This document shows positions 12,318 to 58,943 of a DNA stretch of 64,000 nt, one piece after another; positions within the stretch are counted from its first letter, which is position 1, and each line of letters opens with the position of its first letter. The stretch lies in NCBI GenBank assembly GCA_003971905.1, contig RSEE01000100.1, positions 124,001 to 188,000 of the forward strand, read 5' to 3'. A program made the position numbers and the translations under genes. The notes under the pieces were generated by a model. It had not been told where the DNA came from and did no database searches. It was given only the letters and a program-made list of their open reading frames with translations. Source of the stretch: Moniliella sp. 'wahieum'. Its lineage: Eukaryota.

Positions 12318-13541
12318 GGTGGTGGCGAGGGCGATGGAGGGGGGGAAAGCTGGAGGAGGAAGAGGAGGGGGAGACAGCAGGGCCGGTGCTGTCGGGGGGT
12401 CTTCTATGCGCGACTATATTATGCGAATGCAGGCGCATGCGAAGGCGTTCGGGCCCAACGCGCGCAGAAATGCGGTGCCTCAAGGTCAGGCCACCCGGGC
12501 GCGGCAGCGGGGCAGTGTGCTTCCCCGCATCCAGCGCGCACTTCCGATTCCGGCCGGGTGGCGGCCGGGAGGTGTGGGGTTGGGATGGCGGTCACCGCTG
12601 TCATCCATCCCGACCGCTCGGCATCTGGCGGATGGCCGTCAAATCACTTCTGACCATCTGACTCCGACCGCGGCAAGCGCGGACGACTCCGACGCATCCC
12701 ACGACGCCAGAGGCTGAGAGAGAGCCACAGAGCCACAGAGCACGAGAGTGAAAAGCCATTATACTGTGACGTATTTCATGACGATCATGTGTTCGTTCCC
12801 GCGGGGTATTATACACACAGAAGAGTAAGATACTAGTAGTAGTATAGGGGCTTCTGCATCGGCACTGCCTCGCGCTGCGACCGGTACGCGCGCCAGCCCA
12901 ACTTGAGGCCTGACGGCCTGACGCCTGACATGTGACACCGCTTTTGACTTGGGCCGCGAGAGCAGAGAGCAAGGTGGGTGGCGAGGAGCTGTGTCTGTGC
13001 TCAGTTTTGAGCGCGGGGGCGGAGAGGCGGATGGGCCCGGGTTGGAGGCATTAGTATATATCAACACATCCAGTGTGGCAAGTGACATGTGACACGAGGA
13101 GGGTGTGGGTAGTAGTGATCCGCAGCCTGTGCGTGAGACCGGAGGGACCGGAAGGAGCCCGGTTTCGGGTCGTCTTCCCAGCCAAGACCGACTGTTCCTC
13201 AAAAGCCCAATTACACAGCCATGCATGAACAGCAAGATAACTGTGGGTCACATGTCACAGCCACATTCATCACGCGCATCACATTTTTGCCTTCCTCACA
13301 GGATCTTGGGCAGTGGTGGCCAAAAGGGGATGAAGGGGGGATGGGGGTGCTATACGTCACAAGATAACTAGCTTAACTTTAAGTGTGTTGTGCCTGCTGA
13401 TTGGCGTGAGAAGATTGACTGTATGTGTGTGGCTGAGTCTTGGCGCGCTCAGCACTAGGAGTTTCTGATGGAAACAGTCGGGTGGATCTCTTTGCTAGAG
13501 GGTAGTGCTATAAGGTTCTCCTGCCCTCCCCTAATTGATCA

Positions 13542-14587
13542 ATGATAAATGACGCTCGCTGCAGTGGCGCGGATGATTCGTTTCGTGCGCGCAACCCTTT
13601 TGTTCGTTCCAAATTGCTTCCTTTTGCTCTTGTCTCTTTCCCTTCAGCTTGCTTGAAGGACATTGACAGCCCTCGGCCACCTCGGCCGCCTTCAAGCTCA
13701 TCTCTCGTGCTTCTCATAGCGTTCCTAGGCGTTCCCAATCCGCACAGTAGAGTTGGAGGTGGAGGGGAAGGGGAAGGGGAAGGGGAAGGGGAAGGGGATT
13801 GTTTCGCCTCTTACATTGCACACACTGTCAAATAGGGTCGAGAAGATCAGTGCGACATCTGGGGTGGTGTCAGCAAGACATATGTGCTTGTCTGAGCCGG
13901 CGCGGCCAACACGCAGGGTGGAGCTCGGGCCATACAACCTCCGTCGTACTGGTTTTCTTGTCTACACAGAAGAGGAGCAAATTGGGAACTGAGGGGGCCA
14001 AGTCGATCTCAGTAGGCCAGCAGGCAAGCCCACCAACCATTCATCTGTACCGTGTGCCGAGAGTGACTCGTATGTGGGCCACGAGGAAATCAATGGAGAC
14101 AATCGTGGAGCATAGCAGTAGCTCCCTTTGCGTTCTCGAGCGAGAATCCGACCCAAACCTAGATCTTCCTTTGTACTCTATGTGAAGTAACCCATTGGGA
14201 TCTAAGGTGCACACCTGAACCCCGCGAAAAGGCACGATGCCATCACGTTTGGGGTGGGTAAGGGATAATGGCTTCCAACACGGAGTCCCGGACATTTTGG
14301 CCACGGTAACGTCGGTCATACCAGCCCCCCCCCCCTCTGGGGAATGACACGTGTATCGGAGAAAAGAATGGGGCCGCAACATCGAGCATACCTTCACAGT
14401 GGTGTTGGATGAGTATGTCCCTGGCCATCTCCGGGGTTCTGCAGCAGTGGAAAAAGTGGATGTCGACATGTGGGAGGAGAGGGGGGATGGGGAGGTGGTG
14501 GTGGTGACCCGCAGTGGTAGGCCGGCTGCTGCCAGTAGGCTACTCGACTTGAATTGGATCCAGAGCACCTGCGGAGCGGAGGCGTAG
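13542..14587 (+). CDS. Possible hypothetical protein or gene relic (fragmented)
   Basis: A chain of short plus-strand ORFs with globular-looking segments (RVELGPYNLRRTGFLVY; IEHTFTVVLDEYVPGHL..LLDLNWIQ). No family recognised. Confidence 0.25.
13763..13797 (+). repeat. (GGGGAA)n microsatellite, G-quadruplex-capable
   Basis: About six tandem GGGGAA units. Confidence 0.75.
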
Positions 14588-14672
14588 ACATGCAATGCCA
14601 ATTACGTAATACCCAGTGTGGTCGGCCTCCCCCGTATTCTAACCGCCGCTGCCCATCTCGTATCTCACCTCC

Positions 14673-15496
14673 ATGGCCTGGCTCGACACGCCCGAGGGCG
14701 AAGGAGCGCTTTTCGCTGCCATCTCGCAGTTCCGCCCGTCGGAATCCACAAACATGCGCACCTACTCGCCGTGCTGAACCGGCTGCGCGCTGGCTGGTCC
14801 TGCGTCGTCGGAGCTCGAAGAGGCTGGTGCGGCAGCAGTGTGGGCCAAGCTGGAAGAGTACTACGACCTAGCTGCATTGGAGACGATTGAATCTCAGTCC
14901 ACGGTACCTGATGCGCTGGTAACGCGATCCTTGGCTCCGAAGTTGGCTCGACGCGCGCGTAGTCCGCCCCCTGCTCCACCGGTTGGACGCACACGTCGAG
15001 GTGCCGCCGCAGCGGCGGCGGCGACAGCTACGTGTCCCGCGTGCGATGCCCAGCCCACACCTGGGTTTGACCTACTGGTCTACCCCCAACTTGTGCCGCT
15101 TGTTGAAGCAGCTGGGAGGGCGAATACGCCCGATGCCAGTGGGTCCGATACATCTACCCCCTCGCCTGCACGCAAGCGCCGTCGAACTTCTCGTCCGCCC
15201 CGAACGCGTAAACGGACGAGCAAGTCGCCTGCGCCGTCGGCCGGACGCTCTTCCGCTGCGCCCGAGACCGAGGAGGCGGAGGAAGCAGAACAGAGGCAGA
15301 CCAAGAGCAAGACCAAGAGGCTGACCAAGAGCAGACCAAGAACAAGATCAAGATCAAGAGGAGGCAAGAGGAGGAGGAGGAACCTGAGGGGAACGAGGAG
15401 AAACCCAGTACGCGGGCGGCGACGCGTGCCCAGGCTCAGACCGGCTCGGCAGGCGGTACGGGGAACAAGCCGCGTCGCAGCACGCGCAAAACGTAG
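14673..15496 (+). CDS. EAF7: NuA4 histone acetyltransferase subunit Eaf7 (MRGBP/CT20 family)
   Basis: MAWLDTPEGEGALFAAISQFRPVGIHKHAHLLAVLNRL...WAKLEEYYDLAALETIE (read across indels) matches the Eaf7 PVGIHKH / W.KL...YDL.AL signature, followed by a charged low-complexity tail. Confidence 0.8.
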
Positions 15497-17069
15497 ATTC
15501 GCGGGGGCGGTGGACGATGGATGCATTGGTGGCACGATGGAAGCACCATGATAGGGTATAACAGGCCACAGGGTAGGGAATTTAGGCTTGATCCGCGGAA
15601 GCTGTCGCTACATACGGCACGAGCTCTCTCGTCTGCTGCATGCACCGGTTAGGACCTGTCAGTTGGCTGTACTCGTCTGGGGCCCTAGTACGTCGGGCGG
15701 GAGCTAACGATTGAGTGTGCGGGTTAGCCGAAGTAGAGGAGCGAGGGGGTTATCCTATAGGCTCCGACGATTCATCGTCATCCCATTATCCGTGCCCGCA
15801 GCTTCGAGAAGAGGAATACTAGCCGGGACGCTGAATGCGGGGCATGCGGTGTATGTCCTGAGGGTGGGAGGAGATGAGTTGCCCATTGTCCTACTAACAA
15901 CTATAGACGGACGGGGAATGTCTTGAGCCAGAACATGGTTCAGGGGGCACTGAAAGCCCTATCGCCCATAAAGGTGAGAGCGCGGGTACCATTCCGGCCA
16001 CAGCATCTGTTTCTGCACTGTTGTGTGGTCAGGTGGACCTCAGGGCAGGTTAGCCGGATATGGTAGGCGTGTTGACGATGCGGGTGGGCTGTATACAAGA
16101 GCAGCATGGCGGGCTACTTAGCCCAGTGCGGTTGCCCTTCTACACCTCGGCCAACTCAGGGTTGGGTAGGTGCCACGACTGATGGACAAACCCGCAAAGT
16201 AGAAAGTAATATAGGATGTTCATTCATTTATCATTTCCCTCTTCCCATCTTTCTTCGGTCCTTCCGTCCCCGTATATGGTTCCTTCACGGCTGCCAGTGT
16301 ACACGTGCACACAAAACTTCCCCCGCCTCTCTCGACGCAATAGGATTGCTCTGTTTAAAGAGACGAATAATATACGGTTTCATCATGGTAGTGCCTCCCC
16401 CGGCACGCGAGCGTGGGGCAAGGCGCCTTGCACACCTTTTCCTAGGCGTCACCGGCGTCACCACCGCCATCGCCGCCTAACCCATAGGGGCACAGGCATC
16501 CAAGTTGTCCCTAGGAGAGAGGATGGTGAACCTCGGTGAGGCCGGTGAGGTTACCGACCGGACGGACTATATATGAACTAGTACTTTGTTCTGAATGGCT
16601 GTGCATATGACGAGGTCTCATCGATCATCGGGGGAGAACTATTAACTACAGGCAATGTTGGACGTTGGTGCCAGGAACTGCCGTGGGGTTCAAGAGTTGC
16701 TGAGCTGAGACAGTGCACTGAGTTCCTCGGTTCCTAGCAATTGTCAGTTGCACTACTATTTGAGCTTTGCTAGGTACGTGTTTCTATGGGAAACGAAGGA
16801 AGAACTGGCCGACTCGATCTAAGAGAGCAGAAAAGCCAAGCACCCCCTCATACGGAAGCTTATGTAGTAGCCCGGGTCCTGATTAACGATAGTGTGGGTT
16901 AGCCGATTATTTGGAGCGTTAACGTTTAACAAACAAAAGGAACACATTGGTTGAGTACAGGGCTGATTAAAGTTGAGGAGAGTGTGGAAGCGGATAATCG
17001 CATGGTCGGGTTGCCTTCATTCGGGCGCATGAAGCTTGAAGCTTGGCGTGGACCTGTGGCTCTCACGCT

Positions 17070-18983: not shown

Positions 18984-19048
18984 CGGGGGTCGGGTCGGGT
19001 GGGGGGAGGGCAGGGGAGGAGGCGAGGCGAGGGGCAGGCGAAGCGGTG

Positions 19049-19056: not shown

Positions 19057-22000
19057 CACTTGCGATGGGCCGAGGATAGATAGGGGCGGCAGCCGCGAGG
19101 AAGACTGGGCTGCTGGCGTGTGGGACGGGGGGCTGGGGTGGGAGCCGACAGGCGAGGCACTATGGATGCCGGCTGGCGTTCGCGGCTACGGCTGCAACTG
19201 GGCCATCAAGCTTCAAGCATTAAGCCGGTTCGAAGGACGGGCCAAAGCTTGGTGCGTGCGCTGGGATGGTTCATGATGGTTGCCGCAGACACGCGTGCGG
19301 AGGGGGCCGCAAACACCGCGCGGGAGCCGCCCGGGGCCGCGGCTGAGGCGCTGAGGAGGCAGACGCCTGTCCGAGGCAGGCTGGCTTGGGGCCTCAGCCG
19401 GCGCAGGCCAGCGCAGCCGCATCCAGTGTCCATGCATGGCCGGCGGGTACGTTGGCTGCGCTGGCTTAATCCCCGCTGCGCTTCCGTCCGGCACCGCTTA
19501 TCTGCGCCGCATCCCGCATCACCCACCGTGTCTGCACACTGCCCCCCTGCGCTGCGCTGTGCTCCCTCACGCACTGCGCATCATGCATCACGCATCCTTC
19601 TTCTGCGCTTGGCACTCTGTCGCCCTCGCGCCTGGCAAGACACGACCCCAACCAATCCCGCCCCCCCACGCGGCTCCCTCCCGCCACGTCATGCGCCGTT
19701 GCCAGCCGCTCGGCCCCACGCCGCCGCCCTCACTCACCTTCGGTCTGCGCCATGCTCCACACGCGACCCTCCCCACCTGGTCCCAAGCCAATCCAGTCTT
19801 CGTTTCCGTGCTGCGCGTGCTCGTCGTCGCTGGCGCACAAGTTTCTATTCGACACGACCCATCCCAATGTCCACCCGCGCGCACCCTCCCCCAGCCCCAA
19901 GACAGGCCGCCCTTCGAGACCATCTGTCGTCCACAATCATCAATCAGTCCTCAGTTTCTCAGCCCTCCATGTTGTGAACTTACGTACTGCGTTTTTCCTA
20001 TTCCTACTTCGGCCCTTTCGGTGCTATATGCAGATCACACCGCACGCACCTGCGGCAGAGCACAATCTCCTATCTCAGATCTCAGATCTCAAGAACAAGG
20101 AGATCGTTCAGCTTGGCTTTGCACCAGAAGAGCCATCCATATCAGATCGAACTCCATTGCATGAATTGCACACCCCTTCAGAATCCCACCACACAAAAAG
20201 CCCAAAAAGCCCTTGGGGACTTTCGGAGCTGGTGTCAACGTTCAACACAAGCGATAGTAGGATCTGCGATCGACATATTCCTCATCAAGCATCTAACACA
20301 GCCACCACACCAGCACATACCCACTCCTGTGATCTCATCACACCGATCACACCAGGCCTCAGGCCTCACAACCCGTCGGAGCATCTGCGCTTCTGCGCTA
20401 CTGTTGCCAAATCTCAATCTGAGATCCATGTCGGAGAAGGGCGAAAAGTGACTATAGAGAAGCCTGCCGAGTGTGCGGCTTATTTGGCCGCGCGCATCCC
20501 TTTCTCCCCTTGCTATATTCTCTCTCTAAGCTCTATGTGCTCTTGGCTCTGCGTGGTGCTTATGTCGTGTAGGCCTGAGACTCAGGCCTCAGGTGAGGCC
20601 TGAGGCCTCGGCCTCACTAGTCACTGACTGGCCACTCTCGAAACCGCTTTCAAAAGGACCTTCGATTTCACTTGTACGTAAAGCTCTTCTTCCAGAGGCG
20701 GTGTGGGATCTGGGACGAGCGACGAGCCCTCGATATTCGTTCGACGGTCTCTCTTCTTCGAAAAGAGGTGTTGTGTTAGGCAGTCGGTCTGCTCCGGTTC
20801 ACTTTCGGTTTCGGTTAACGGTTACCACTTATATGCTTCCGATGGTAACCGGTAAGTACGAAGTAATTAAAAGACCAACAGCGCAACAAGCAGTTTACGT
20901 AGGTGGCTGCACCATGCGCGCCACATTTTGTACTTGGCAAACGCCACACGCCATACGCCATACGCCACACGTCACCCGTCACACTCGTCACACTCACGCG
21001 CCAGACACCGCCGCTATATACACCCCTCTGGGATCTGGGATACCATCAGTTGTACGTTTTCTTTGGTGCGTTCTGCCTTCTGCACGTTCTGTCGTTCTGC
21101 ACGTTCTGCATTCGGCGTTGGGTGTTTGACTTGGTGTGTTTGACGCTCGGCGTTCGGTGGTCCGTGATTAATTGATTAATGATTCACGCGGCGCATCTCA
21201 GATCTCAACAAGATGATGGCTTCTCGTACCCTTTTCTTCCGTATACTGTAACTTCCCTTCTGGTTCCAAAAACTCCGAACTCCGCCCGCGGCCCTAGTAG
21301 GTCTTAGGCCTTAGGCCGATCCAGAAAATGTATCGACCGAACCTCTTCTGCTGTTGAATCTGCCATGCAGAGCCTCAGTGTTGGGTCGCTCTCGGTCTCG
21401 TTTTCAACGTTCCAGCTTCAAATGCTTCAAGCATCCAACGCGTTTCACCGACCGCAGCTTTCAAGCTTCAAGCTTCAAGCTTCATGCCCTGCCACAGCCC
21501 TACCACAGCCCTGCCAACAGCCCCTCCCGCCGCCCTTCCCTCCAAACCTCTCTGCCACAGGCGTATATAGCACAACCTATACACGAGCTACTACGTACTT
21601 ACCGGTGGTGAAAACGTCAGACCTTCCCTATTGCGCCTTATGTGGGAGGTCGGGCTCTCCCAGTTGGGTTAACGCGTAACGCGGGAACGCCGTCAGTGTA
21701 CCACTTGGCTGTTATATACACGAGCGCTCGCGCTTGCGGGCCATGAATACCTCGGTTTCTCTCATGAGAAGCTTGAAGCTTAGTAGGGTTATCTCTTTAT
21801 CGACTCTCTTCCTACCGACCAACTCTGGTTAACACTACCTTGCCCCCCCCCCCTGACCGGCACCCCCCCCTTAAGAAACACCTCCGTCTTCTCCTTCACC
21901 GCGGCATTCTCGGCTTTGAAGGTGCTCTTACCTTATCTTTACGACTCTATGTGGCTCACCCCGATTCTCCACTGCAAGCTCCAGATCCTCTCAGGTAGGG

Positions 22001-28939: not shown

Positions 28940-30072
28940 GGCGATAATACAACTAACGGCGACTGAGGGTAATAGGGTGCACTGGGATTAAGCCTTGGTG
29001 CCGACAAAGGGGGTGATGCGAAGGCACGTGTTGTTGGAGGAAGATGAGCAAGAGTCACAGAAAGCAAAGTGCGGCTCCAGTGGTGAAGTCCTGGAAGAGT
29101 AGCGGTTGGGACGGAAAACGTAACGGTGGCACTTAGGCTGTGTATATACCGAAAGAGAGAGCGAGACGGATGGTGCTGGTGGTGAGAGATGAGGCGAGGA
29201 AGTGAGGCCGAGCAAGGAAGACGGATGGAATCCAAAGGGTAGCTTTTGCGTGCTAACCCATAGGATGGCGATTCATGGAGGTACTTTTAGTAGGCCTGCG
29301 GCATATGCGACAGTAACAGTAAGTTACTCGCTATTGGCCACATACAGGTTATGTGTTCCGCAACATTCTGTGGCGCGATACGAGTCTGTCGTGTAAGATA
29401 GATACTCGATACTGGCGTACTGCAAGTGTGTGGCTGCGGCGTTAACACAACGTTACTGCTAATACTGCAATTACGCGTTACGAGCTACTACTACTAGTTA
29501 CTACACCTTATTGCCTGGAGCCCAGCAGCCAGTGCGGTCTTGGGGGGGGGCAGCCTGGAGCAGCAGAACGATTTCGACCGAGAAAGAGGGCGATAATCCA
29601 GACCGAGGCGTGCTTGGGTTCAGCGAACGCCTGCGAACGCTTTCAGCCACGCAGGATCTCAGATCCTCAGGTCTTAGATTCGATCCTAGCGCTCCACACG
29701 CGCTCAACGTACTCTGAGTACTCAGTCTGAGATCTGAGAGTCCTCAACGCAACGCTATTCTTGGCGGTGGCTTTTCGGAATAACGCCGCCACCTCGCCAC
29801 CTAGTCGCTTATTAGTCACCTAGTCACATATAGACAACCAAGTACAATACTAAGTACTAAGGCCAAAGGCCGAATAATCGATGGTCACCGATCACTAGTC
29901 ACTCAGACTATTGTCGCGCTTTGCGAGTGTCACATGTCACATGTCATGTCGTTATTTCTCCGCCACAGATGTGGGGGATATGGAACTGATATGGCACGGA
30001 TAGGCCGCATAATTTCCACCTTCTAGACACCTAAGTACTATCATCATGAGGCTCTTTTCACAAAGTTTGACG

Positions 30073-30129
30073 CTTGAAGCTTGAAGCTTGAAGCTTGAAG
30101 CTTGAAGCTTGCAGCTTGAAAAAAGCTTG
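30073..30129. repeat. Tandem (GAAGCTT)n heptamer array
   Basis: Five perfect consecutive copies plus degenerate flanking copies. Confidence 0.9.
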
Positions 30130-33100
30130 CACAGTAGCTGTAGTAGCGTCACACTGGTGTAGTAGCGCCGGTAGCCCAAGCCCGGATCCTTCCGGTGCAT
30201 TTCTTCCAACATTCCTTCCAAGAGGGCAAAAATATTGGTTAGCCTCTGTAGATCATGTGCAATGCAATACACACCATCAACTACCTGCTCTCTGTTGGTC
30301 TTCTACAGCACCCAATCCACAGAGAGATCGTTTATAGACTGTAAGCGATGCGCGAACGTCCGTGTAATCGCGGAGTGCTGATATACTGATACGCTGTGAT
30401 ACAGATACGCTGGGTACTACTGTGATGCATGTGAGCGCTGAGCATGGGAGCGCTGAGCCTCGGCGACGTTCATCGATCATCGAACGATTACCGGTTACCG
30501 GTTACTATTAATAACCCGCCGGTTACATGTTACAGTAGGTTAGTTACTGGATACCAGATATCGGCCTAATGCCCTCTCTTGCGTATATGATCTTCCACAC
30601 AATGCTCCAGCCTGAGCGCCTGAGCGTTCACGCTGCCTGAGGCCTGAGGTGCCCAGCTTTCATCGATATCGAAGCTCGATCGCCACTTGATACACCCCGG
30701 CTGCCACATGTATGTCATGCGCCACATGTCATGCAATGCCAACCCTCCAACCCTGCTATATACTCATCGGACTCAGTCTCAGTGATGAGACTCATCGGTC
30801 ACCCAAGCATCAGATGGAAGCGGGCCTCAGGCCTCAGGGACAGGGGAAATCTGCATAGTAAACACACTTGCAACCACATGATCATTTGCATGCATAAAGT
30901 TGAAGAGCTTGAAGCTTGGAGCTAGGCTAGCCACCTAATTGCAGCTTCAAGTGGTACCAACGAGACGAGGTGACTTCGGTGACTTTTCGGACAGCTCTTC
31001 TTCCCACATTGGCGCGCTCTTGTTTAATCTGCACGTTTCGCCGTGTTGCGTTGCGTGTGTTGCACGTTCGGTGTGCGCCACGCAGGTTCACGTGCTACGC
31101 GTTACGCTTATAACCGCAAAAGTTATGAACCCGCCGGGTGCGGAGTTTGCCGGTTTCCGGTTGCGGATTCGGTTGCGAATTCTCGCGTTGGGCCTTAGGC
31201 CTTAGGGTTGGTGGGCTCCACACGGCACCGCTTTTGGAGGTTCTGTGGTTGGGTATGTAAGAAGTACACGCCTCTCGGATCTCACTGTAACATTTAAGCC
31301 CGCACAGACGTCCTGCCTCCGCTCTGAGTTCCATGTCACACGTCTCACATTGTCTGAGGATGCGGCCGGACATTGGTGCACCTACATACATTGCAAGCCC
31401 CAGGTCCCAGGTAGGCAGGGCGAGCTACGCCAGGCCACGCCCAGGCCTCTGGTGCCAGTGGCCCTGCACTGGCCGTCCAGGAACTAGCAAAGCTTAAAGC
31501 TAGTCACGCACTTTAATCTCTTTTGTCCCGATGATCGATGAACCGATGAACGTACGTGGATCGATGGTCGATGATCCGCCACAGAACCTTCTTTGTGGGT
31601 CCAGCGCCCAGCCTGGTTCAGCTCTGTCCAACTTCGGGCACTATTGGTTCTGAAAAAAAATGAAAGTCCTTTGTGCTTATAGGTGTAGAAGTAGCTCAGT
31701 ACCAATGCAGAGTGGTGGATCGTGAAGCTTGAAGCATGGTAGGTTGCAACTTAGACAGCCAAACGCCTGTATATAACACGTGCGTGTCCCTTGTGAAACC
31801 ACAAAAATCTCGCTGGGGGATGCGTCACGCGTGACGCGTCACTTTGAGATCGCGGTGATGGCGTTACCATATACCATTGGGCTCTCTCTGAATTGGAAGG
31901 AAGCGCTGCAGCACTTAGCATCGGAGATGATCGGCTGGGCGCTGGGCCTCGGCGCGCTGCATGAGGCTTGAAGAGCTTGAAACTTGAAGCTTGAAGCTTG
32001 AAGACGAGCATCTGAGATCTGAGATCTGATGGGCCTATAGCCATTTTCCTCTCTGTCTTCTCCCTCTGTTATTATCCAAATGAAAAGGATTCAAAAGACA
32101 TATCTTTTGTACACGATAGATTGTGTATTCATGGCCGATGTTACATGTGACCTATACATGACCATGTATCACTCATCGTCAACTTGGATGAATTCCGTAT
32201 GGGAATTTTAATGATCCTTCTGTTGTGGTTACCCAGCGACGTCCCAAGTGCAGTGATGCAGTGGTAGAGAAAAGACATGAGCTGGGTTGAACGTTGAACC
32301 CATAACCCATACTGAGGATGATATGAGAAGAAGAAGGACGAGTGGCACAAGGCTAGAGGATATAGGGATACTATACTGTTGGTGTGGCGGCATGGATAAG
32401 AGGGCCAGGGTGACCTCGGAGGTGGCTGACCTTCAGACCCTTCAGTACCTTCAGTGGTCAACAGATTTGTTAGGGGGGTGGACACACAACACATGTATTG
32501 CAAGATGTCCCTAGCATTTTCTGTAGAGATATTTACACGTATACTCAGATGAGGTGTACGCACGTGAATAACTAAAAGTGTTGCAGGTGAAGCGTTAACC
32601 ACGTCGCTCCCGGCCTTGCATGTCCAATGGGACTGAGACTCTGTTTTACAGGAGGCTGGGGTTTCATGTACGTCTCGTCTATATTATGTGGCTTTTTCTT
32701 CTGTGAGGCGCACTCCTTCTGGAAAAAGTGTGTGCTGACTTGGCTGGCATCGGAGGCGATTGTAGCGATGCATATTAGTAGTCTGCCTCGGACGAGTCGT
32801 ACGTATTCAGTTGGAAGGGTGTTGAGTACATAAGATCAGGAAAGGTTGCGGAACGCTCTGGGCAAAATCATGCTTTTGTAGTAGCCCCAAAAGAATACAC
32901 TGTCTCTCCGATCTCATGGTTCGGTCTCCAGCAGGAGCCAACGAAACGAAATGTAACATGCAATGCATTTTTGTCATAGATAGTATACGCCTGACGAGAC
33001 ATACACGTTCCAAAGATAGCCCTTCAGTAACGCACCCACATCTTCGTTCACACCACGTTCTTTCCTATCTAATACAACTACCTCTGTTTTATCGCATGGT

Positions 33101-35617
33101 GCCACATCCTTGCATATCATAATGGTGGTGGACAATCCTTAAAATATAGTGGCAGTAGCTCAAGCCCGCTGTTACCTGTTATCAGCCTCCAGAGTGTATT
33201 GCTTCTCTTCCGGAGAGATGCATTACTTCTATGAAGATAAATAGCATTCTCTCCGGGTTTGTGCAACCCCTACTTAGTATGCTGTAGATGCAATGCAATT
33301 CATGATACCGTCGGAAAGCTGAAGATTTTCCAGGTTCCCACCTCTATCTTTGGTACGCAACCATCTGGCGCAAGAAGTTGTGGTGCTTATTGTCGAGACG
33401 GGTGAGCTTCGCCAGGAGGCTCACCCATATGTATGGTGTACTATCCCTTATAGAGAACGGAAGGACGACTCACGGTGGTTTCGCGCTTGAACTGGCTGGT
33501 GAATCCGAGCAGAGCTAGCGGCAAAAGGAGTGGCCTCTGAGCATAAAGCAGAAGAGGCCTCTGCAGATGTGGCAAGACTGCCTATTATTCACCGGCTTGA
33601 GCAGTAGTAACATGTCTGAAGCCTCCGGAATGACAGACAGAGAGGGGGGGGGCAGGGGAGGACAACCACTGCCAGAGTTGTGACTGGACAGAGACAGAAT
33701 TCGTCATGGGGGAAGATAACCTACGCGACAAGATTGAGGGGACTGAACTCGACGTAGCCAAAGGATGAGGGTTCACGCAATTTGACGGATGGAAGGCTGA
33801 AAGCGGGAGCGACGGGAGTTGAAAGGTGAGAACATATGCATATTATACACACTTACTATTTCATCACACGAACGACCGTGTGACAACACTTTTGAGAGAT
33901 TATCCCTTTCCCCTTTCCCCACTCCCACATGGGAACCGGGAGTGCCTTTAGGCCTATGGAAGTGAAGCTGACAGAGAGATCCCAGACAAAACCGCACTGG
34001 TTTCTTCTTTGGTGGATACCCGTCTCTCGACTTTTGGAACTGGCGTCCTCTTCGTTAAGAGGAAGGATGGTCCGCGTACCGCACCTTCTCCACGTCATAA
34101 CTACTGTGCTCTGACCCTTATTATCGTAACGATACAGAGGTTTTGTCCTGTGTAAGGAGCGACTCACTCTCAAACGCCTGCCGATAGCCACTAGATATCT
34201 TCACCCAAAGCTGGACCTCATCCGTAGTTTGGGGTGAAACCACTTTAATCACCTCTGCGCTTAAGGAAAAGAACACGAGGACATGAAGGTCGCCTTTTTT
34301 GTACACACGGTATGGCCATTTCGAGGCTATCATAGCCTTTTCGGTAACTTTGCAAGCCACCGAGAGGTGCCACCTTTACCGCAGCCCGTTTTTTTGCGAG
34401 AAGACTCTATGGGATGATTTGGACATCCATCGGTCTAATCACACTGTGTACACCCTGTACCACCCACGGGCATACTGAATGGATCAGCCGGATTTGCAAA
34501 CTATGCAATATACAGCTCTCGGTATGCCTACCTGGATTCTGTTCCACCTTTTTCTCCACAGGGTAACTTGATTTGCGTATACACAACTGACTCTTCCACC
34601 CTCTCGAGCACGGATGCATGCTTCACCTTTTTCCTCCTCACATATATATGTGGTTACGCTCCCAGGGAAGAAAAATGGAGAGGCAACTTCGTCAACCGTC
34701 GGAACAGAGTGCGGCTCGTTGTTCTGGGCAGCCCTCTTCTCTGCGCTGAACAGTTTTGTGTCGCGCGTCTCCGTCTCCCTCCACTGCCTCCGTTTTGACT
34801 TACGGTATGCAAAATCCAAGTTTGGTTCATCTTTTTGTCCTTCTATCCGCCTCCGTAGTCACACACTTTTTAGTGCCAGTTAACCCCCAGTAAAAGCGCG
34901 AGACTAAGAAGGAAAAAAGCGAGCTGCCAGAAAGCCAACAAAAGTATTTCTTGCTGCAATATCAAACACCTATCGGTGGGGGTGTTGGGCACAACAATTG
35001 GGACAAAATATATTAGGTTTCCGGGAAGATATAGCCATCAATAAGAGCCCCAAGCTGCTCCCGTAGCCGACGACCAACTTGGTGTGGTACGCGCGTATAA
35101 GCCAGTGTATAATCACTGTGCACTATACGTGACTGCGTTAACTTCCCAATCTCGGATCTCATACCAAAAACACACAGCAGTTCAGCTCTCAGCCGCTCAG
35201 CCACAGCTGAGCTGAGGGTGCTGAGGACCGGGCCAACAAGAAGTCAAGACCACGGCGAGAGAGCCTAGTACTCAGGATGACATGTTCTAGATTCTGGCAA
35301 TGAAGAGATGGATATAAGGGATGGAAGACAGACGCACTGCGCCGATTTGGTCGTGTGCCCAATACAGAGGAGAAGGCTGAGGCCCGCTGAGGCCAGGGGA
35401 CACCTGGAGGCTCGCAATTGAACATTAGTCTGCCCATTCGGCGATTCTCCAGTTCATTATTTCAGTCTTGCCAGTTTTTCAGCTGCCGATGTGAAGCAAC
35501 TGTTGGCCTTTGGATTTTTGCGCAACTTGATTCGTCGGTTGCACCACCATCTTCTTACGGCTGCGGATGCCCCCCTGCCCACGCCTATCGCCTACCTTCC
35601 CCACATCCTTCCGTGCC

Positions 35618-36663
35618 ATGTCCAACACAGTATCGCATGCCTCCTCCGCCGCGGCTGACGCGTACGGCTCGTATGCCCGTCCTTCGCCCGAGCGGGAAGC
35701 CGAGATTGTCGCTCGCATCGGCTCGGTGCGGGCCGAGGTGGCACGGGCAAGCGAGCTGAGCTGCTCACTTGGGTGGCGTTCCGAGGCACCAAGACTAGTG
35801 GCCGTATCTAAGCTGCATCCCCCGAGTTCCATTATGGCTGCATACGCCAAGACGGGTCAACGTCACTTTGGTGAGAACTACGTGCAAGAGTTGGTGGATA
35901 AGTCACATGTCTTGCCCCGCTCGATTCAGTGGCACTTTATTGGTGCACTGCAGAGCAACAAAGCTAAGATGTTGGCTGCCGTTCCCAACCTGTATGCTGT
36001 GGAGACGCTCGAGTCTGCCAAGGCGGCTGACCAGATGGAAAAGTACATTGCTCAGCACCTTCTGAACGCAGTACCCCTCTGCGCGTGTTCATCCAGATCA
36101 ACACATCGGGGGAGACGAACAGGCGGGTCTTGCGCCCTTGACCGGTGAGACTTGTGGGCCCGAATCCCCCGTTGTGGTACTGGCCAAACACGTGATTACC
36201 AAGTGCCCCACCTCCTCTTTGCTGGGCTCATGACCATTGGCTCGTTTGCCCATAGCAAAGCGGCCGAGGCGGACCTTGCCTTGGCCAAAACTGACCCGCA
36301 CGCCGCGCGCAGGCAATCGTCGATGCCAACCCCGACTTTGCTACGCTCGTCGAGACTCGGACCAGGCTGGTCGACCTTCTTCGGGCTGACGAGACATTGG
36401 GCACACTGGTCCGTTCCGCCCCGGAGGGCCACTCGTCGGCCGCCGAGTACGCCGCAACCTTGTTTTCCTCTTCGTCCCCGGCGCCAGATGGGGGATTGGA
36501 GCTGAGCATGGGCATGTCTAACGATCTCGAGGTCGCAATCATGGCTGGCAGCACCAATGTCCGTGTCGGGACCGAGTGCTTTGGAACGCGTCCGCCCACC
36601 AGGCCCGAGGCTATGGCACTTATGGAGCATGAACTTCACCGGCCCAACGACCGGAATGATTAA
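35618..36663 (+). CDS. Pyridoxal phosphate homeostasis protein (PLPBP/YggS/PROSC family)
   Basis: RLVAVSKLHP..GQRHFGENYVQEL..WHFIGALQSNKAK..QINTSGE..GLMTIG..ELSMGMSNDLEVAIMAGSTNVRVGT.CFG.R. Confidence 0.93.
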
Positions 36664-36990
36664 TGAGCGCGAGCGTTTGCCCGCTGTTCTGTGCGATGTC
36701 GTGTGCCAGGGGTTTGTTGTGGCCTCGTCTCAAGTTTCATTTTTCCATTGCCATCTAGCCCTCTGTATCCGGCATGTGCATCATTAACGTCCTCTCGTCC
36801 TAGTTGCACCTATACGACAGAGACCAACAGGGCAAAATAGAAATCGATTGGACACACCCGTAAATCGTGAACCGTGAATGACCGGGACAGCTGCATGGTC
36901 GACAGTCCAGGCGGCACAAAGCAATAAATGTCACTTGAGGAGGCACACGAGAGACAGATGAGATGAAGAAGAGGTATGTACGTTCAACGT

Positions 36991-39900
36991 TCAGTCCTCA
37001 TCTTCAAACGCGTGGTACCCAGCCCGACGCATCGCGCCCAACTTGCGTCTGGCCAGGGTCAATTCCTTTTCGAGTTTCAGTACCTCGACTTGCTGTTCCA
37101 TCTCCTTCACCTTAAACTCATGGGTCGCCATGGTGGCATAGTCCGCCTCGCCCTCCTCAGTCGACTGGTTTTCAGTGATGGTCTTGACTTGACGTACCAG
37201 CGCTTTGCACGCTTCAGTCACTGCCTTGGCGCCCGCTCTAGGCGGTCTTGAGTTTTGCTCATAAGCTCTGCCTTGACCCGGACGCAGCGACCAACTGAGG
37301 CCGTAGCCGCGACTTCGTTGGAAGCTACGACCAACTGTTCGAGCGAGTGTGTCCCCGCGATCACCCCGTCTGCTGCTTCGATCAACATGGTGGTAGCGAA
37401 TGCGACGGCGCGCGCGGCCGAGATGAGTCCCTCGGTCCAACGGTTGTTCTTCTTGTAGAACTGCTGGTTGGTCGACGAGCCGCGGCCCATGCCACAATCT
37501 CGTGTTGCGACTCGGTGGCAGCGTGAATCAAGCCTGCGATCGCTTTGGTGATAGCTAGTGAAGCGGCCAGAATAGCGTCGTGCACAGCCAAATCGGTAGC
37601 ACTGTACTTCTCCTTGGGCCGGCTGAGGAGGGATTGAAGGCGTTGGGTAGCGGCCTCAATTGCATTTGCCGCATTCAGCATTTCATTCTCTACCACATCC
37701 CCATGTCCGTTGAGGCGAGGAGTTTTTTGTCCCCTTGCGACTTGAGCATCTGTTCCACCAGCGATCCCATTTCCGTCAATGACGAGCGAGCTTGCATTGT
37801 CTGACTCGCCAATCCGGCCTGTCGCTGCGCCGCAGGACGGTAACTTTGAAGACTCTCGAAAAACCGGACCACCGTCGTTCCCGCCGTACGTCGGTCGAGA
37901 CGATCGTGTCCGCTGCATCATCGCTCTGGGCAAGGCGCGTGATTCCCTTGGCACTCAACAAAATGTCGCTTGTCGTCTGGGCAAATTGGTTGGCCTTCTT
38001 GATGACCTCGACGTGCTCACCACCGCGCTTGCCATCGAGGAACAAGCTGAAAACTGAAGAGAACTCCACCACATTCTCCACCCCCTTTTCAATCATTGAA
38101 AGCACTATTCTGGCGTAGCCGTATTGTTGCCATGCGAGGACGGGGACTCGAGCTCGTACAGGGCATCGTCCACTTTGTCAGCACAAGCTTGGAGAATCGA
38201 GTCGATGATCGAATTGAGTTTCTGAGTATTGTCGAGGATGATGGTGTCAATCTGCGCATTGACAGCCTGGTCGTTGGCACCTTGGACAAGAGAGAGGTTG
38301 TTCATTTGTGGATGGTCGAGTCCATCCCCTCTTGCAGGATCGCAATCTCAGCGTCCTTCTCCTCCTTGAGCCGGGTCATTGCATCCTCCCATTCACGCAG
38401 CTGGATCGCATTGCTGTCGTCTCACTCTGCTTTTGCTGCAGTGCTTCCTCCAGCTCGGTGATTTGACGGTTCAGCGTATCCATCACGCTTCCCATCTCGG
38501 ACGACCGTGCACGCGAAGCATCCTCCGCTCGCTCATTGGCAAACCGCAGATCACGTTTGAGACGGTCAAACTCTTCCTTTTGTGAATGGCGGATCTTGTC
38601 CAGCTCAAACCGCTCGGTCCCGTTCGCGAATCATGTTGGCCAACTCAAGGTTTTTGGCCCGAACGTCCTTCTGCATCCGTTCCATCTTGTCCACCGCCTC
38701 CTGTGCACTACCAGCTTGAGTTGGAACTGTTTGTGCTTGCCCAACATGTCCAAGTGTTCCGCTCGCAGCTGACTGTACAGCTTGGCCAACGCCTCGTACT
38801 TGCTCGCCAGAGCTGCACCTGCTCTTGAAGCTGCCGAATCAAGTCGTCCTTGGCTCCCAATTGCGCCTGCACATTGGCCCCCACAGAGCCATTCGGTTTC
38901 GAGTGCCTTGACTCGACGATCGTACTGTTCCAGCATGAGCTGGTCGCGCTCCCATTGCCCGCGCATACTGAGCAGGTCGCGCTCTAACTCGGCCTGCCGG
39001 CCTCCTGCAGCGCAGCCATCTGTTGCTGGAGAAGTTGTTCCTGGGCAATGCGTTGCTGCTCGGCTTGGCGTGCTGTTCTTGTTCAAATTCACGCTGCTGT
39101 TGTGCTTGCAATTCAGCTTGCCGTTTCCGTTCGGCCTCTTGCTGGTCCTTGAGCGCCTTCTGCTTGTCCTCGTAGTGCTTCAAGAGCCGGGCCTGCTCAT
39201 CGATCTCCGCTTGCGATGGACCGGCGGGGGTATCGCTTCGGGATGGTGGGGCAGGGGTGGATGCGCTGCGTGCGGGCAAGTCCGGTGCGTTCTCCGACTC
39301 AAGTAAGTTGGTGGATCACGGTTCAATTTGGGAACAGTAATGAGCGAGGTGAGGTACTTGAGGCTAGCACACTCGTTATAGAACCGGCGCAAATTGTGGT
39401 GCTGGTGCTTGTAACGGTTTTGTAATGGTTCAATGGCGTCCGAGCATCAATGCGACGGCGAATGGCACGGAGCATCGAGGTGAGGAACTTGTAGATTCCG
39501 TACGACTCCATCACTTGCGGTACGAGAGCCGCAATTCGCGCTTCGTTGTTGCTCTGCGGGCGGAAGTAGGCAAACACCATCTTCTGGAACGAATCGATCG
39601 GTCTTGCAGGTCCATCAGGTCGCTGATCGTCTCGTACCTGATCAAAGAGGGGAAGACGCAATTTTAGCATGCGGAGGGCAAAGGGAAAGGGAAAGAAGGT
39701 GTGGCGGGCTTACCCTTCGTCCGGGTTGTCGATGAGCTTGAGCGCAATGTATTCTTGGTACTCAAAGAGCCCATTGAATTCCCGATGGTTGCGGTGGAAC
39801 TTGAGTTTAGACAACAGGAGTTTGACATAGGCCTGGATCAGTGGGACATAATTATTGGACCAGGCGCGGCGCTCTCCGCCATCTGTGCCGCTGATTCGAA

Positions 39901-40202: not shown

Positions 40203-41097
40203 GGTGGGCAGGTGGGGTGGAAGGCGGACGAGGAGACGGAGGGGAGGAGACGAGGTGGTGGCCGCGTGTGCGCCTTGGTGGGCCGGGGTGATATGATAGA
40301 GGTCAACACGGTGCATTCCGTGAGGGCATCGGGTACATAGCCGCCGGCGGCAGTGACGAGTACCTGGCAACTAGTGAAGAGGGCAGCTTCCAGCATCCGG
40401 TCCAAGCTTCATGGGGCAAGTGCTGGGCAGGGCGCTGCTGCTGAGATCTCAGCCAAATCGCCGGGCTCCAGCGACGACGGGCACCAGCGCACCCACGCGC
40501 TCGTCACAGATATGCGTTCCCATCGTTGTGCTGGCCTGGCCAGGTGGCCTGGGTGGGTGCGGGCGAATGGAGGCGATGGATGATGTCAGACTTGAGTCCG
40601 AAGCACATGCCCAGAGGCGCCGGGGCAGGCTGTGGGTGTGTCTCGTGTCTGTCACACTGTCACCTGGGCCGGCGAACGCGGAGCATAGCCAGGCGTGGCC
40701 AAGGGGGAGGCCGATGGCGGCCGCGCATCCTAGGCTGCTGAAGGCAGCCGCGTGGTGGTGGTGGGGGGGGGGGGGCGGGGGCGGGGGTCGGCCGAGGCGG
40801 AGGGGGGCGGGTGGATGCTGCCGGCGGGGGAGCGAGGGGAGCGAGGGAGGTGCGTGAGGGTTGAGGCTGAGGGCGTGGCCGTCCTGGCTGCCCACAGCCG
40901 GCCATGACACATGGCGTCCATCGATGCGCTGGGATGCAATTGCACATTTCAACCCCCCGTGCAGCCTGCAACTTTCACTGCGTGCTCGAACCAGCACTTG
41001 CACCGAGCAGCGTCCGTCCGCCTCCCGCGCCCCATCCCGCCCACTCGGCGGCCCCCACCACCCACACCTGCCCCCCTGCCCCCGCCGCCGCCGCGCC

Positions 41098-55075: not shown

Positions 55076-57181
55076 TGCAGCTGGACTGCACCTTGAAGCT
55101 GAACATTGCACATTGCCCTGCGCTGCGCTGCTGCGTCTGTGTGGCCCGCGCCCGCACGCTGCGCTGCGCACGGACCGCGCACCCCGGACAGCGACACAGA
55201 CGCACTGCGCCAGTCGTCGTCGCAGCGTCGACGTCATCTCGATCCCATCCGTCTTCCATCAGCCATCATCCATCTCACCCATCTTCGCTTCTCTTCCGTC
55301 GCATTAATAACCCGCTGGCCCTGGCCCGCGTCCTGTCCGAGGCCGTGGCGAACATGCAATCCTTCTGGCCCTCGCCACGCATCCCCCAGCGCCCAGCGTC
55401 GCCTCGTCATTACCATTCGTCATCAAAAAAGCTCCAGCTCAGCCGGAGCACTGAGGGACTGAGGCCCAACCCACCAGCCAGAACAGAAGCTGTCACGTGG
55501 CTGTCACGTGGTGCATGTCAGCAAGCGCTCGGCTCCCGCACAGCCCCCCCAATTCCGGCCCGACCACACCGCACCCCCCACCCCCGTCCGCAATGTCCGC
55601 CCCATCCCGTTCTGTCCCGTCTGCATCGCATTGTGCTGGGGCCTGCTGCGCGCTCAGGCCCGCGGATGCGCAGATCCTCAGAGTCCCCGCCATCCCGTGG
55701 GCTGAGTCGCTTTGCGTTCCGCCCCCGGCCCATTCCGCGTCCGCTGCGGCCCAACCTCCGGACTAGGTGAGAAAGGTAGCAGGGGCGAGATGCTCGATGG
55801 AAGGTGCAAGCGCCCCGGGTGAAAGCGCGATGACGTCACGTGACGTCCCTACGGTCACGCGGACGCGGCCGCGGTGCCCGTCCCGAGCGCTGGGACCGCG
55901 GTGGTTAGATCGGCTTCCGCCGTTACGCGTTACGTGGCTCCGTGTTATATATCCTGTGCACTTGAAGCTCGAGATCCCTCCCGACCATTATGATGCAGAG
56001 GGCCATTATCGAGTGTCGAGCTCGGACACTGAGCGGCTGAGCACGCCAAGGGAGAGCCAGGGCTCAAGCACGGGATCCTTCAGAATAGTAAGCGCGAAGC
56101 CCTAGCAGAGAAACCGAAACTCAACAATGGGCGGGTCCCGCGGTCATCGAATCGAGAGGTCATCCGACAACCACGCTATACTAGTAGTAGTATCTTATGT
56201 CCGCCATGCTCAACCCCGCCCACGTCTTCAGCTGATGTGGATAACAATCTATAGTGGGGGCGAGACCAAAGTGAAGAGAACACTCGCTGATGTAATGAGG
56301 GTACTGTTATAGTAATAGGTCACCCTTGTTCATTTTCGTCGTGACACAACTTCCATGCAATCTCGTGCGTTCCATCCCATAGGCGCACACATATGACAAG
56401 AAAACCCACATTCGGCGGAAGCCAGGCGCGCTGGCCAGCGGCTGGAAAGATGCTCTGAACATCATGCCAAGGGATAGAGTGCTGGTCACTCTACCCCCAG
56501 TCGTCTCTGTGATTCCTATGGCTATCAGTTATCGGGTCCGCGAGATGAAAAAAAGGGGCCGAGGGCATGGTCAGCATTGAAGGCCCCACAAGCGAAACCG
56601 CCGCACAAAAGGACTTCGAGGATCAAGCGAAAGAGACACTAGTCACTGTACACAGTACGGACAGTGCGACCAGCGCGGCTTAGTAGGACGAGATATGCCC
56701 CAGAAGAGAAAGAGGAAGAGTGGAAGGATGTGGTAGAGGTGTGCTTGCTTCCCTGGCCAGTTGACATGTTGACATGCCCTCGCTCCTCTCCCACCTTCCC
56801 CAGGGCTTTTCCCTGCGTTTCCGCCGCGGCAAACCGAGTCAGCAGGTCTCAGACGGCCGCCCCGAGCCCCTCTCGGGGCTTGGGACGGGGTGGGATCGGG
56901 GATGTAGTGGGGTCTGGGAGGGTTCTTCTGGGCGCGTCACGCATCACGAATACGTATTCGCTTGGTCGATGGTCAGCGCAACCAGTGACTATCGACGGAC
57001 GTTCGTACTTAGTACCGTCGCTGACCAGTGCCAAGTCACATGTCACAGAAGGGGTGGCAAGGGGGCACGGACGCAGTGTTCCCACGCCTGGCAACGCGCG
57101 CCGCCCTTTGGGGTGTTTAATTCTGTGGGCGAGGAGGGCCACTGGCGCCGTGCGGGCTGCTGGCGCCACACGGTCACAGCC

Positions 57182-57225
57182 GCTGCGTGCTGCTGCGTGC
57201 TGCTGCGTGCTGCTGCGTGCTGCTA
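57182..57225. repeat. 10-bp tandem repeat (GCTGCGTGCT), about 4 copies, upstream of ras2 copy B
   Basis: Directly visible. Confidence 0.85.
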
Positions 57226-57393
57226 CGGGCGGCTGCATGCGGCTGTGTGCCCGACCAGGAAAAGCGCGCCTTGGACAGCCAACGTCCGACGCCCCCATCC
57301 GTACAAGCGCATCGCCCCGCCCCGCCCCCCTTGGCGACCTCCTTGCTTCCTCTCCTCCACCCCCCGTCTCCTCCCCCGCCGTCCTCGCCCACC

Positions 57394-58149
57394 ATGTCAG
57401 GCAAGATGATGATCTACAAACTGGTTGTCCTGGGCGATGGCGGCGTAGGCAAGACCGCGCTGACGATCCAGGGTGTAGAGCTCGGTTCCCCAATGACTTT
57501 TTTTCTTTAACCTGGCTGCGACGTTTTTTTACCACCACGGCACCATGGCCAAACGACCACCGCTAACCGCTGTCCTTGGTTTTGGTTCGTTCATATGTAC
57601 CGCTCGCTTCGTGCTTGGCCGGGTGGAGTAGCTGTGCCTCAACCATTTTGTCGAGACGTACGACCCGACCATCGAGGACTCGTATCGCAAACAAACAGTC
57701 ATTGACGACCAGCCGTGTATGCTCGAGGTGCTCGACACGGTGGGCAGGAGGAGTACACGGCTTTGCGGGACCAGTGGGTGCGTGAAGGCGAGGGGTTTCT
57801 GTTAGTGTACTCGATTGTGAGTCGGCCGACGTTTGAGCGCATCGAGCGGTTCAAGAACCAAATTACGCGCGTGAAAGATGATCCTAATGTTCCCACCATC
57901 CTCGTGGGGAACAAGTGCGACAAGGCCGACGAGCGAGAGGTGGCGTCGGAAGAAGGCGAAGCGCTGGCGACCCGACTTGGGTGCCAGTTTGTCGAAACGT
58001 CAGCCAAGACGTGTGTGAATGTGGAAAAGGCGTATCTCAACGTTGTCCGCTTGATCCGCGAACAACGGGGTGAGATTGTCAAGCATGCCACAAAGGGAAG
58101 GAGGAATCCATTCAAGTCCGACTCCAAGACCAAATGCTTCCTGTTTTAA
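57394..58149 (+). CDS. ras2: Ras small GTPase, Ras2-type (copy B); intron ~57472-57631
   Basis: The N-terminus [47 protein letters not shown] is identical to copy A and the G-boxes are present. It ends SKTKCFLF. There is an indel at DTAG, and the intron donor reads CAG/GGTGTA (probable error). Confidence 0.9.
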
Positions 58150-58943
58150 TATGTTCCCCCCCCCTCTTTCCGTTCTGGCCCAGGGTTTCTTCTTTCTTTT
58201 TTCTTTTGTAGACGCCCTTTTCCCAGCAACTTATTACCCCAAGAGAAGGGCTTCCTATCCCCCCCCCCCCCGCTGCCTTTCTCACTGTTCTTTCTGAGCA
58301 ACCCTCCTTGCCTCGTGGCTGTGGATTGATACCTCCTCCAATAGGTCCACCGACCACACCTCTTTCGTACGGATGGCGGTACGTTGCATGTTTTCCATCC
58401 CGTACTCCAACTTCGGTCGCCCGTTTCGTTTGCAGACATGCTTGTGCCACCTTTGTTATGCCTTCTCTCCTCTCCTCGCCTCTCTCCCTCCCCAGCACAA
58501 GGTCAGTTTGGCTTGCATCAAGCCAGGCGAGGGCCGTGCCTCGTGGCGGTGGCTGGTTGCGCCACAGCACACCTACATCCCATTGCTAGAGAGGGCGCAT
58601 GCGGCAGTGGATAATAGTTGCTACTGGCTAATTGCTCGGCACCAGTTACTAGCTGCTAGTTGCTCGTAACGCGTAACTCGTAACGGCCCGGTTACCGGTT
58701 ATGACCGGCGCCAGTGACCCAGGGGTACGGCGCGCAGGTAGGACTGAGTAGGCGCCAGGCGCACACAACCGTTGGGCCCTGGCCCCCCAATTTCATCTTT
58801 CAAAGGCGGATTCAGACTCGGACGGGGCTACCTAGTGGCTGGCACGGCCTCCGCTTCTCCTCTCCTCCTGTCCCCTCTCCTCTGCCCTCCTCTCCTCTCC
58901 CTCCATCTCCACCCCCCCTCCTCCCCTCCACCTCCACTTCGCC

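Follow-up and report, generated by a model that had tools for sequence, protein, structure and literature searches.

Palindromic Period-Seven Repeats in Moniliella sp. 'wahieum' as Probable Excision Footprints of a DNA Transposon

Introduction

The non-coding DNA of the fungus Moniliella sp. 'wahieum' contains short palindromic repeats with a period of seven bases. These repeats were analysed in a 64-kb window (positions 124,001 to 188,000 of contig RSEE01000100.1, assembly GCA_003971905.1), which is part of contig C100 in an assembly of 69.5 Mb and 223 contigs, and in samples of other contigs. The period-seven pattern is real and non-random. The repeats are probably the excision footprints, here called scars, of a cut-and-paste DNA transposon, together with short arrays that grew from them. 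The closest described systems are V(D)J recombination and several groups of DNA transposons.

The hairpin made by RAG is flush, and RAG and Transib are associated with a 5-bp target duplication and CAC termini. EnSpm/CACTA elements carry tandem subterminal repeats, hAT elements duplicate 8 bp of their target, and a target triplet of the TNA or TWA type is typical of PIF/Harbinger elements and Tourist MITEs (miniature transposable elements with inverted repeats). The sources cited below supply further details. In V(D)J coding joints and Transib, the flanking DNA acquires a hairpin, which a host nuclease opens before the ends are joined (PMC5499845), and opening 2 nt 3' of the apex yields two palindromic (P) bases (PMC3299998). 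At the empty site, Ac/Ds elements, which belong to hAT, leave P-nucleotide insertions and short deletions, few footprints dominate in Candida albicans, and the palindromes have as their centre the complement of the base that adjoins the element (PMC5873905). The hAT7 elements of rust fungi make 7-bp duplications, PIF/Harbinger elements make 3-bp duplications, and fungal EnSpm/Plavaka elements make 2–3-bp duplications and end in CAC..GTG, TGT..ACA or CATCA..TGATG (PMC12730594). In the Mutator-like element (MULE) Muta1, the flank hairpin includes both full strands (43 + 43 nt); MULEs are described with 8–10-bp duplications, terminal repeats longer than 100 bp, and mostly precise excision (PMC5499845).

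The Period-Seven Grammar

An earlier note on this DNA had described arrays of a palindromic hexamer plus one base whose cores always begin with A. In the window, all 16 exact pairs of palindromic hexamers separated by one base are indeed A-first, and the same applies to 67 of the 70 pairs in 20 sampled 10-kb stretches (200 kb) of contig C1. Local dinucleotide shuffles of the window predict approximately 0.2 A-first pairs. When the spacer is 0, 2, or 3 bases long instead of one, the window contains 3, 2, and 0 pairs, respectively. In 364 kb, 101 palindromic period-seven cores begin with A, and the remaining three first bases account for 4, 2, and 1. Shuffled controls, spacer lengths, and first bases had all been proposed as checks of the pattern, and each of them speaks for it.

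The geometry of the A...T hexamer is therefore real, but it is better written as a sharper rule: T-N-A, a 4-bp palindrome (P4) derived from the flank, and an identical T-N-A. In matches of the form TNA-P4-TNA, the second N is the same 314 times, complementary 25 times, and another base 27 times. Relative to other spacers, palindromic ones reach a ratio of 1.13 at TnA and only 0.035–0.088 in the 15 remaining triplet frames. There are 59 matches at 48 loci in the window, which bears out the arrays that had been reported from its non-coding gaps. Nearly all of the positions given for them lie within a few bases of such a locus, but 21768 and 56637 have a single intact TNA, and the middle N is changed at 29716 and 31823. 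The variety of cores had been underestimated, since all 16 possible P4 cores occur and not ten. A supposed period-five version did not hold up, as it is near chance in the 364 kb (15 seen, 9 expected), and the A-first palindromic case of period nine is absent from the same sample.

The palindrome depends on its surroundings. In 44 of the 48 window loci, it is the mirror of the two flanking bases on one side; of the 4 loci that are not templated in this way, at least two lie inside reading frames. Flank-templated scars avoid coding DNA, as had been suspected for coding exons: in a 614-kb sample, 1 of 480 falls in the coding class, which comes from a crude codon model and takes up 16% of the bases and 14% of the TNA triplets. 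The loss of seven-base frameshifts would suffice to explain their absence from coding DNA. The scar density is approximately 0.8 per kb (480 in 614 kb), and extrapolation from this sample gives about 50,000 scars genome-wide. Isolated scars (n = 143) show little base preference outside TNA.

The Unit Event in Homologous Contigs

The window has a homologous partner, contig C141, with 92–94% identity. Compared with the window, C141 lacks 7 bases at 10 of the 48 loci, has 7 more at two, and has 14 more at one. Indels were then counted in nine homologous pairs (266,866 aligned columns), with at least 9 of 10 matching columns required on each side. The clean indels include 69 of seven bases versus 34 of five, 40 of six, and 11 of eight bases. 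In 15 of these 69, the two alleles are exactly xyTNA and xyTNA y'x' xyTNA, where primes denote complementary bases. The short allele of all 15 contains neither a repeat nor a palindrome. The homologous pairs stand in for the comparison of isolates that the earlier note had proposed. The 15 events per 7,455 mismatches correspond to about two per thousand substitutions. According to a reading of the indel list, 12 more of the 69 change a unit of the grammar, and pure duplication fits them too. A further 28 have no exact explanation in this scheme, and several of these are one substitution off the rule.

The direction of the change was followed in 30 aligned copies of a solo long terminal repeat (LTR). 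At one and the same place, one copy has the +7 form, 28 have no extra bases, and one has three different extra bases.

This solo LTR is approximately 165 bases long (window 30143-30308), is also present in C141, and has 152 candidate copies in the genome. It was considered as a source MITE and ruled out by its TG..CA ends and by 5-bp duplications, which were seen in several copies.

The Junction Spectrum

The junctions were described as xyTNA, followed by i bases of u v v' u', then by j bases of y' x' x y, and finally by TNAuv. They were counted in the 614 kb on both strands, with overlapping array units included, and TNA was compared with seven control triplets. The (0,4) class, in which i = 0 and j = 4, dominates with 641 junctions at TNA versus 8–52 at the controls. 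It is followed by (1,4) with 54 versus 1–10 and (2,4) with 46 versus 3–8. The (3,4) class was seen once (controls 0–2), and (4,4) gave 4 strand-hits at two loci (controls 0–1), at one of which two different palindromes adjoin.

The rarer classes have counterparts among the indels, where one 8-base and two 9-base siblings keep u or uv after the first TNA. These siblings suggest a duplication of 7 bp that has N at its centre and a hairpin on either flank. The 8-, 9-, and 11-base forms fit a TNA-centred 7-bp duplication whose two flush flank hairpins were opened 2 nt off the tip and end-joined.

A Candidate Source Element

An inverted-repeat family with CTCACTG ends is present in the genome, and one pair of its ends lies 4.85 kb apart on C11. 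Five copies of 4.9 kb are located at G000 C11:228241-233089, C23:154552-159519, C29:72158-77127, C34:500340-505284, and C35:43991-48846, and a copy of 378 bp at C20:546811-547188. A flank-independent pattern search gave 14 ends, and a DNA search added more in diverged short copies. The inverted repeats are approximately 60–80 bases long, with tandem subterminal repeats at the ends; short tandem repeats were found inside the ends of the C149 and C20 copies, and the word CACTG stands two bases inside the end. Five of the seven two-ended copies are flanked by an exact 7-bp duplication of the form nnTNAnn (GATCATG, GTTGATG twice, CATCAAC, and GATGATG). TNA is in register at 20 of 21 ends, against a background of about 4% per position. 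One end lies at the second TNA of a pre-existing scar. Together with 14 adjacent scar pairs that share a TNA and have different cores, this indicates repeated hits.

Two copies deserve a separate remark. The same insertion site at C8:478694 and C23:153503 (L156/L157) shows a two-base difference at the element end. The extra two bases mirror the last two flank bases, yet they also repeat the first two bases of the element, so either a rejoined opened hairpin or a slip may account for them. At the start of C149 (L095:1-779), an element end passes into repeats of the TTAGGG type where the contig stops, and this copy was apparently truncated and healed by telomere addition.

Searches beyond this family gave little. 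No element end was found in a metagenome scan, and a blind scan of 1.05 Mb for 7-bp duplications with inverted ends contained no convincing element among the matches listed. Genome searches with the KDZ, hAT, MULE, DUF659, and Plavaka families gave no match, which is a weak negative for hAT given its silent controls.

The other multi-copy family in the genome has CACGGGCG ends. One of its members is a 5.1-kb element (G000:C10:752776-757871; L121:4776-9871) with a 2-bp duplication; this element is missing from the homologous contig C47, and at least 14 two-ended copies of 4–10 kb were counted. Its interior contains decayed EnSpm-like motifs by eye, and four fragments of it had no Pfam match. 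The 2–3-bp duplication and CAC..GTG termini that characterize EnSpm/CACTA elements are found in this family. As a source of the scars it is ruled out by the 2-bp duplications in 8 of 10 further copies.

Proposed Mechanism and the Evidence Against It

The following route would produce the scars. An element with terminal inverted repeats enters the site x y T N A u v, whose seven bases are duplicated, as is seen in the surviving copies. Upon excision, each flank would be sealed as a flush hairpin. A nuclease of the Pso2/Artemis type might then open each hairpin 2 nt 3' of the tip and leave 3' overhangs of four bases, the palindromes u v v' u' and y' x' x y. To judge from the junction spectrum, end joining would keep one overhang whole and usually remove the other, with xyTNA y'x' xyTNA uv or its mirror as the main product (+7). 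If 1, 2, 3, or 4 bases of the second overhang were kept, the rarer products of +8 to +11 would arise. Scars that are hit again would become mixed-core arrays, for which the shared TNA triplets provide some evidence, and same-core arrays were probably lengthened by slippage. Of the origins that the earlier note had listed for the repeats as scars of a generative process with P-nucleotide-like palindromes, hairpin opening combined with transposon excision fits best. The CTCACTG family or its kin would be the maker of the scars, by way of a putative transposase that would form the flank hairpins. A rough estimate based on assumed mutation rates indicates that ordinary transposition rates of a handful of copies would suffice, because every hop leaves a scar while the copy number stays flat.

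Several observations weigh against this interpretation. The (0,0), (0,2), and (0,3) junctions are not enriched, though free trimming of both ends would yield them; in view of this and of the dominance of (0,4), one 4-base palindromic overhang appears to be kept whole and the other usually lost. The direction of insertion is demonstrated by a single event. No copy of the CTCACTG element lies in the window, and exact-flank searches for an empty or scarred homologous site of a CTCACTG copy found none in four attempts. Inside the 4.9-kb copies, there was no match to PF02992, PF18759, PF05699, PF10551, PF18758, PF04937, or four transposase-like fragments; these searches were coordinate-only, so decayed copies could be missed. 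One of the 21 ends is shifted by 2 bases. In two of the seven two-ended copies (G000:C11:228241-233089 and C38:472882 onward, L161), the flanks are TNA-centred but unmatched, as is expected after recombination between copies or inversion. Finally, half-sites in the strong-then-weak order make up 20 of 28 in the surviving copies versus 8 of 30 in the clean recent events (Fisher p 0.001) and 100 of 286 in isolated scars (p 0.0003). Because of this narrower flank spectrum, the surviving CTCACTG family may not be the sole writer. The mismatch could stem from sister families, from an older and broader family, or from biased survival.

Alternative Explanations

The hairpin route may be correct and the writer different or additional, with most scars made by sister families of broader targets or by a host-kept transposase-like gene. 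This is unlikely, and it draws on the narrower flank spectrum of the surviving family, on the contrast between approximately 14 CTCACTG loci and the extrapolated number of scars, and on two Tnp2 (PF02992) matches. The latter are single-locus genes at C17:557 kb (L030:6181-7982; common to C62) and C34:515 kb (L143:2262-5872), around which no long terminal inverted repeats were seen; they are possibly host-kept transposases. Nothing ties these two genes to TNA, and a 7-base duplication between two hairpin tips requires a prior insertion step. The CTCACTG family matches both the length of the duplication and its TNA centre, while the CACGGGCG-ended family makes 2-bp duplications.

A transposon-free repair error is improbable. 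It would start from a nick or staggered break near TNA, whose 3' end folds back with A on T and N looped out, is filled in by two bases, and is ligated beside a second xyTNA. Such a process yields the commonest +7 product exactly, and odd-centred inverted repeats are in fact enriched mainly at T-N-A centres (TcA 86 versus 19, TgA 85 versus 27.5). It predicts neither the 8-, 9-, and 11-base siblings, in which u, uv, or uvv'u' is retained behind the first TNA, nor a junction with palindromes on either side. It also leaves the fixed two-base fill unexplained, given that neither period five nor the A-first palindromic form of period nine stands out, and it makes a coincidence of the element that duplicates nnTNAnn over 7 bp.

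Ordinary microsatellite birth with slippage, favoured by hairpin-forming palindromic units as in CNG repeats, is very improbable as the origin. The abundance of repeats would agree with it: adjacent scars have the same core in 93 pairs, TGAAGCT arrays abound (a 17-mer has 2,280 overlapping matches genome-wide), and the 12 seven-base indels that fit the pure duplication of a unit could be slippage products. Slippage microsatellites need a prior repeat, whereas the 15 clean events start from a plain short allele. G- and C-first palindromes, which form stronger hairpins, are not enriched either. The short alleles thus refute slippage as the origin, and it can stand as a secondary process that lengthens arrays.

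A selected protein-binding or chromatin signal, with TGA/TCA half-sites four bases apart, has hardly any probability left. The pattern lies in non-coding DNA near genes, and TGA/TCA and TTA/TAA resemble the half-sites of bZIP proteins. The spacer, on the other hand, mirrors whatever flank is present and uses all 16 cores. The structural chromatin signal that the earlier note had offered as an alternative is not supported. Moreover, at 13 of the 48 window loci, a homolog of about 93% identity deviates by exact multiples of 7.

A sequencing or assembly artefact can be dismissed with near certainty: the assembly is rich in single-base indels with frameshifted genes, but several scars (e.g., at 16919, 21461, and 44730) recur letter for letter in the separately assembled C141, and the scars avoid coding DNA and match the target duplication of a genomic element.

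Comparison with Described Systems

The scars combine a target duplication with a palindrome copied from the flank, as flank-hairpin footprints do, and an element with an equal duplication is present in the genome. With V(D)J joints and Transib, they share even-centred palindromes, and a flush hairpin would follow here from the junctions. They differ in that one junction type dominates, the duplication is 7 bp long with a fixed TNA centre, and the ends begin with CTCACTG and not CAC. The CTCACTG family resembles the rust hAT7 elements in its 7-bp duplication. The scar palindromes, unlike those of Ac/Ds, are even and not odd, and the complementary N is at background. Double-hairpin footprints of an 8-bp nAnnnnTn target, as hAT elements might leave, were rejected because inverted non-palindromic cores are at background (3 versus 3.7 expected). 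No hAT dimerisation domain and no match to PF05699 or PF04937 was found in the genome, a weak negative since the controls were silent too.

The short terminal inverted repeats and tandem subterminal repeats of the CTCACTG family are reminiscent of EnSpm/CACTA and Plavaka elements, from which the 7-bp duplication and the CTCACTG ends set it apart; within the limits of the coordinate-only searches, which could miss decayed copies, no Tnp2 or Plavaka match was found inside its copies. A hairpin on the flank, as proposed here, is likewise described for MULEs, but the duplication of 7 bp and inverted ends of about 60–80 bp differ from theirs, and PF10551 is unmatched in the genome. PIF/Harbinger elements differ in the length of the duplication. 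Footprints of the Harbinger type (TNA plus element ends) were rejected, as the filler follows the flank and not the element ends, and plain TNA duplications are not enriched (196 per 10,000 versus 99–316 for the controls). The length of its duplication thus places the element outside Transib, EnSpm/Plavaka, MULE, and Harbinger. No description of the pattern, its geometry, or its scale was found in the literature searched, with subscription papers and Repbase outside the scope, and the supplements of PMC12730594 may list comparable families.

Scar Loci and Other Features of the Window

The scar loci are given below in window coordinates, without strand; the numbers after C141 are differences in bases from the window.

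12904..12935: four TGA triplets in a composite run, cores GGCC and CATG, with an 8-base sibling at 12909
13083..13092: scar TGA-CATG-TGA; C141 is 7 bases shorter and has no palindrome
13248..13257: scar TCA-CATG-TCA
16447..16462: 9-base sibling with the whole 7-bp duplication (centre TGA/TCA) and 2 inverted bases
16535..16550: 9-base sibling
16618..16627: scar TCA-TCGA-TCA; C141 -8
16919..16928: scar TTA-ACGT-TTA; identical in C141
17030..17046: TGA-AGCT array just 3' of the aldehyde dehydrogenase gene
19206..19215: scar TCA-AGCT-TCA; C141 +14 (two extra units)
20075..20091: array of (TCA-GATC)n; C141 lacks one of its units
20354..20623: two GGCC/CTAG composite clusters (20359; 20582-20623) edging a 259-base stretch missing from C141
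20846..20855: scar TAA-CCGG-TAA; plain site in C141 (-7)
21173..21313: three scars, TGA-TTAA-TGA, TCA-GATC-TCA (C141 +7), and TTA-GGCC-TTA
21461..21484: (TCA-AGCT)n array; identical in C141
21670..21679: scar TAA-CGCG-TAA
29471..29480: scar TTA-CGCG-TTA; C141 -7
29728..29946: cluster of TGA-GATC-TGA, an 8-base sibling at 29814, TAA-GTAC-TAA, TCA-CTAG-TCA (C141 -7), and (TCA-CATG)n
30075..30110: longest array, (TGA-AGCT)n, five units
30377..30647: cluster, first part: 8-base siblings at 30377 and 30611, TGA-GCGC-TGA (C141 -7), and TCA-TCGA-TCA
30377..30647: cluster, second part: (TTA-CCGG)n (C141 +7), TTA-CATG-TTA, and TGA-GGCC-TGA
30827..30836: scar TCA-GGCC-TCA; C141 -7
31195..31732: three scars, TTA-GGCC-TTA, TGA-TCGA-TGA, and TGA-AGCT-TGA
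31985..32029: two arrays, (TGA-AGCT)n and (TGA-GATC)n (C141 -7 for the latter)
32288..32455: scar TGA-ACGT-TGA and 9-base sibling at 32440
35376..35392: 10-base sibling; one overhang keeps 3 bases and the other all 4
36657..36993: two scars (36657; 36984, C141 -7) in the gap between convergent genes
55923..55932: scar TTA-CGCG-TTA; C141 -7
56760..57045: 8-base sibling at 56760 and scar TCA-CATG-TCA at 57036
58667..58701: scars TAA-CGCG-TAA and TTA-CCGG-TTA
61413..61428: 9-base sibling; 9-base indel of the same sequence context versus C141

The aldehyde dehydrogenase gene (window 17070-18527) has approximately 16 copies in the assembly. Its loci form pairs that are about 90–95% identical over 10 kb; between pairs, the identity is about 74–82% and alignment is possible mainly in coding DNA. 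The window also carries two Ras-family GTPase genes and two MRS2 transporter genes, and these doubled genes, together with the dehydrogenase pairs, suggest a hybrid diploid on top of older duplications. Further window genes encode a GH63 glycosidase, an I/LWEQ-domain protein, LETM1, a mitochondrial carrier, and an OPT transporter. The best named relatives of LETM1 belong to Ustilaginomycotina (63–70% identity). In most genes, the coding sequence is distributed over several frames (examples at window 17063-18544 and 36991-40210), and the commonest indels between homologs are those of a single base (1,782 clean), which together indicate uncorrected long-read errors.

Contig C141 has extra stretches at window 16410 (about 3.3 kb), 10557 (about 0.55 kb), and 13416 (about 0.64 kb) without clear inverted ends. 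The first 85 bases of the 0.64-kb stretch are a sequence that is found again at several other loci, possibly a small RNA gene. At window 10676-10781, a stretch of about 105 bases has copies elsewhere with 83–85% identity and looks tRNA-like by eye.

Significance

The class of mechanism is already known, and the scars are most likely excision footprints of a new geometry and on an unusual scale. Excision footprints are usually met a few at a time in assays. Here, they form a dominant, rule-bound class of indels, with about 50,000 extrapolated scars for approximately 14 surviving loci of the candidate family. The scars therefore record past transposition that is missed by counts of elements. They are also a source of in vivo statistics on how hairpins are opened and ends joined in a fungus, and they offer a testable path from a transposon scar to a microsatellite. 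Repeats of TGA and TCA near promoters need not be regulatory, and caution is required in this respect.

A bolder reading is conceivable, though it is more doubtful than not. The writer could belong to an undescribed transposon lineage that forms flush hairpins as RAG does and targets 7 bp centred on TNA, or be a host-kept relative of its enzyme. It would have made thousands of hops per surviving copy, returned to its own scars, and written palindromic heptamer repeats next to genes throughout the genome. If this is true, hit-and-run transposition would be a main source of new microsatellites and of promoter-side mutation in this lineage, and each transposition event would be legible from the sequence alone.

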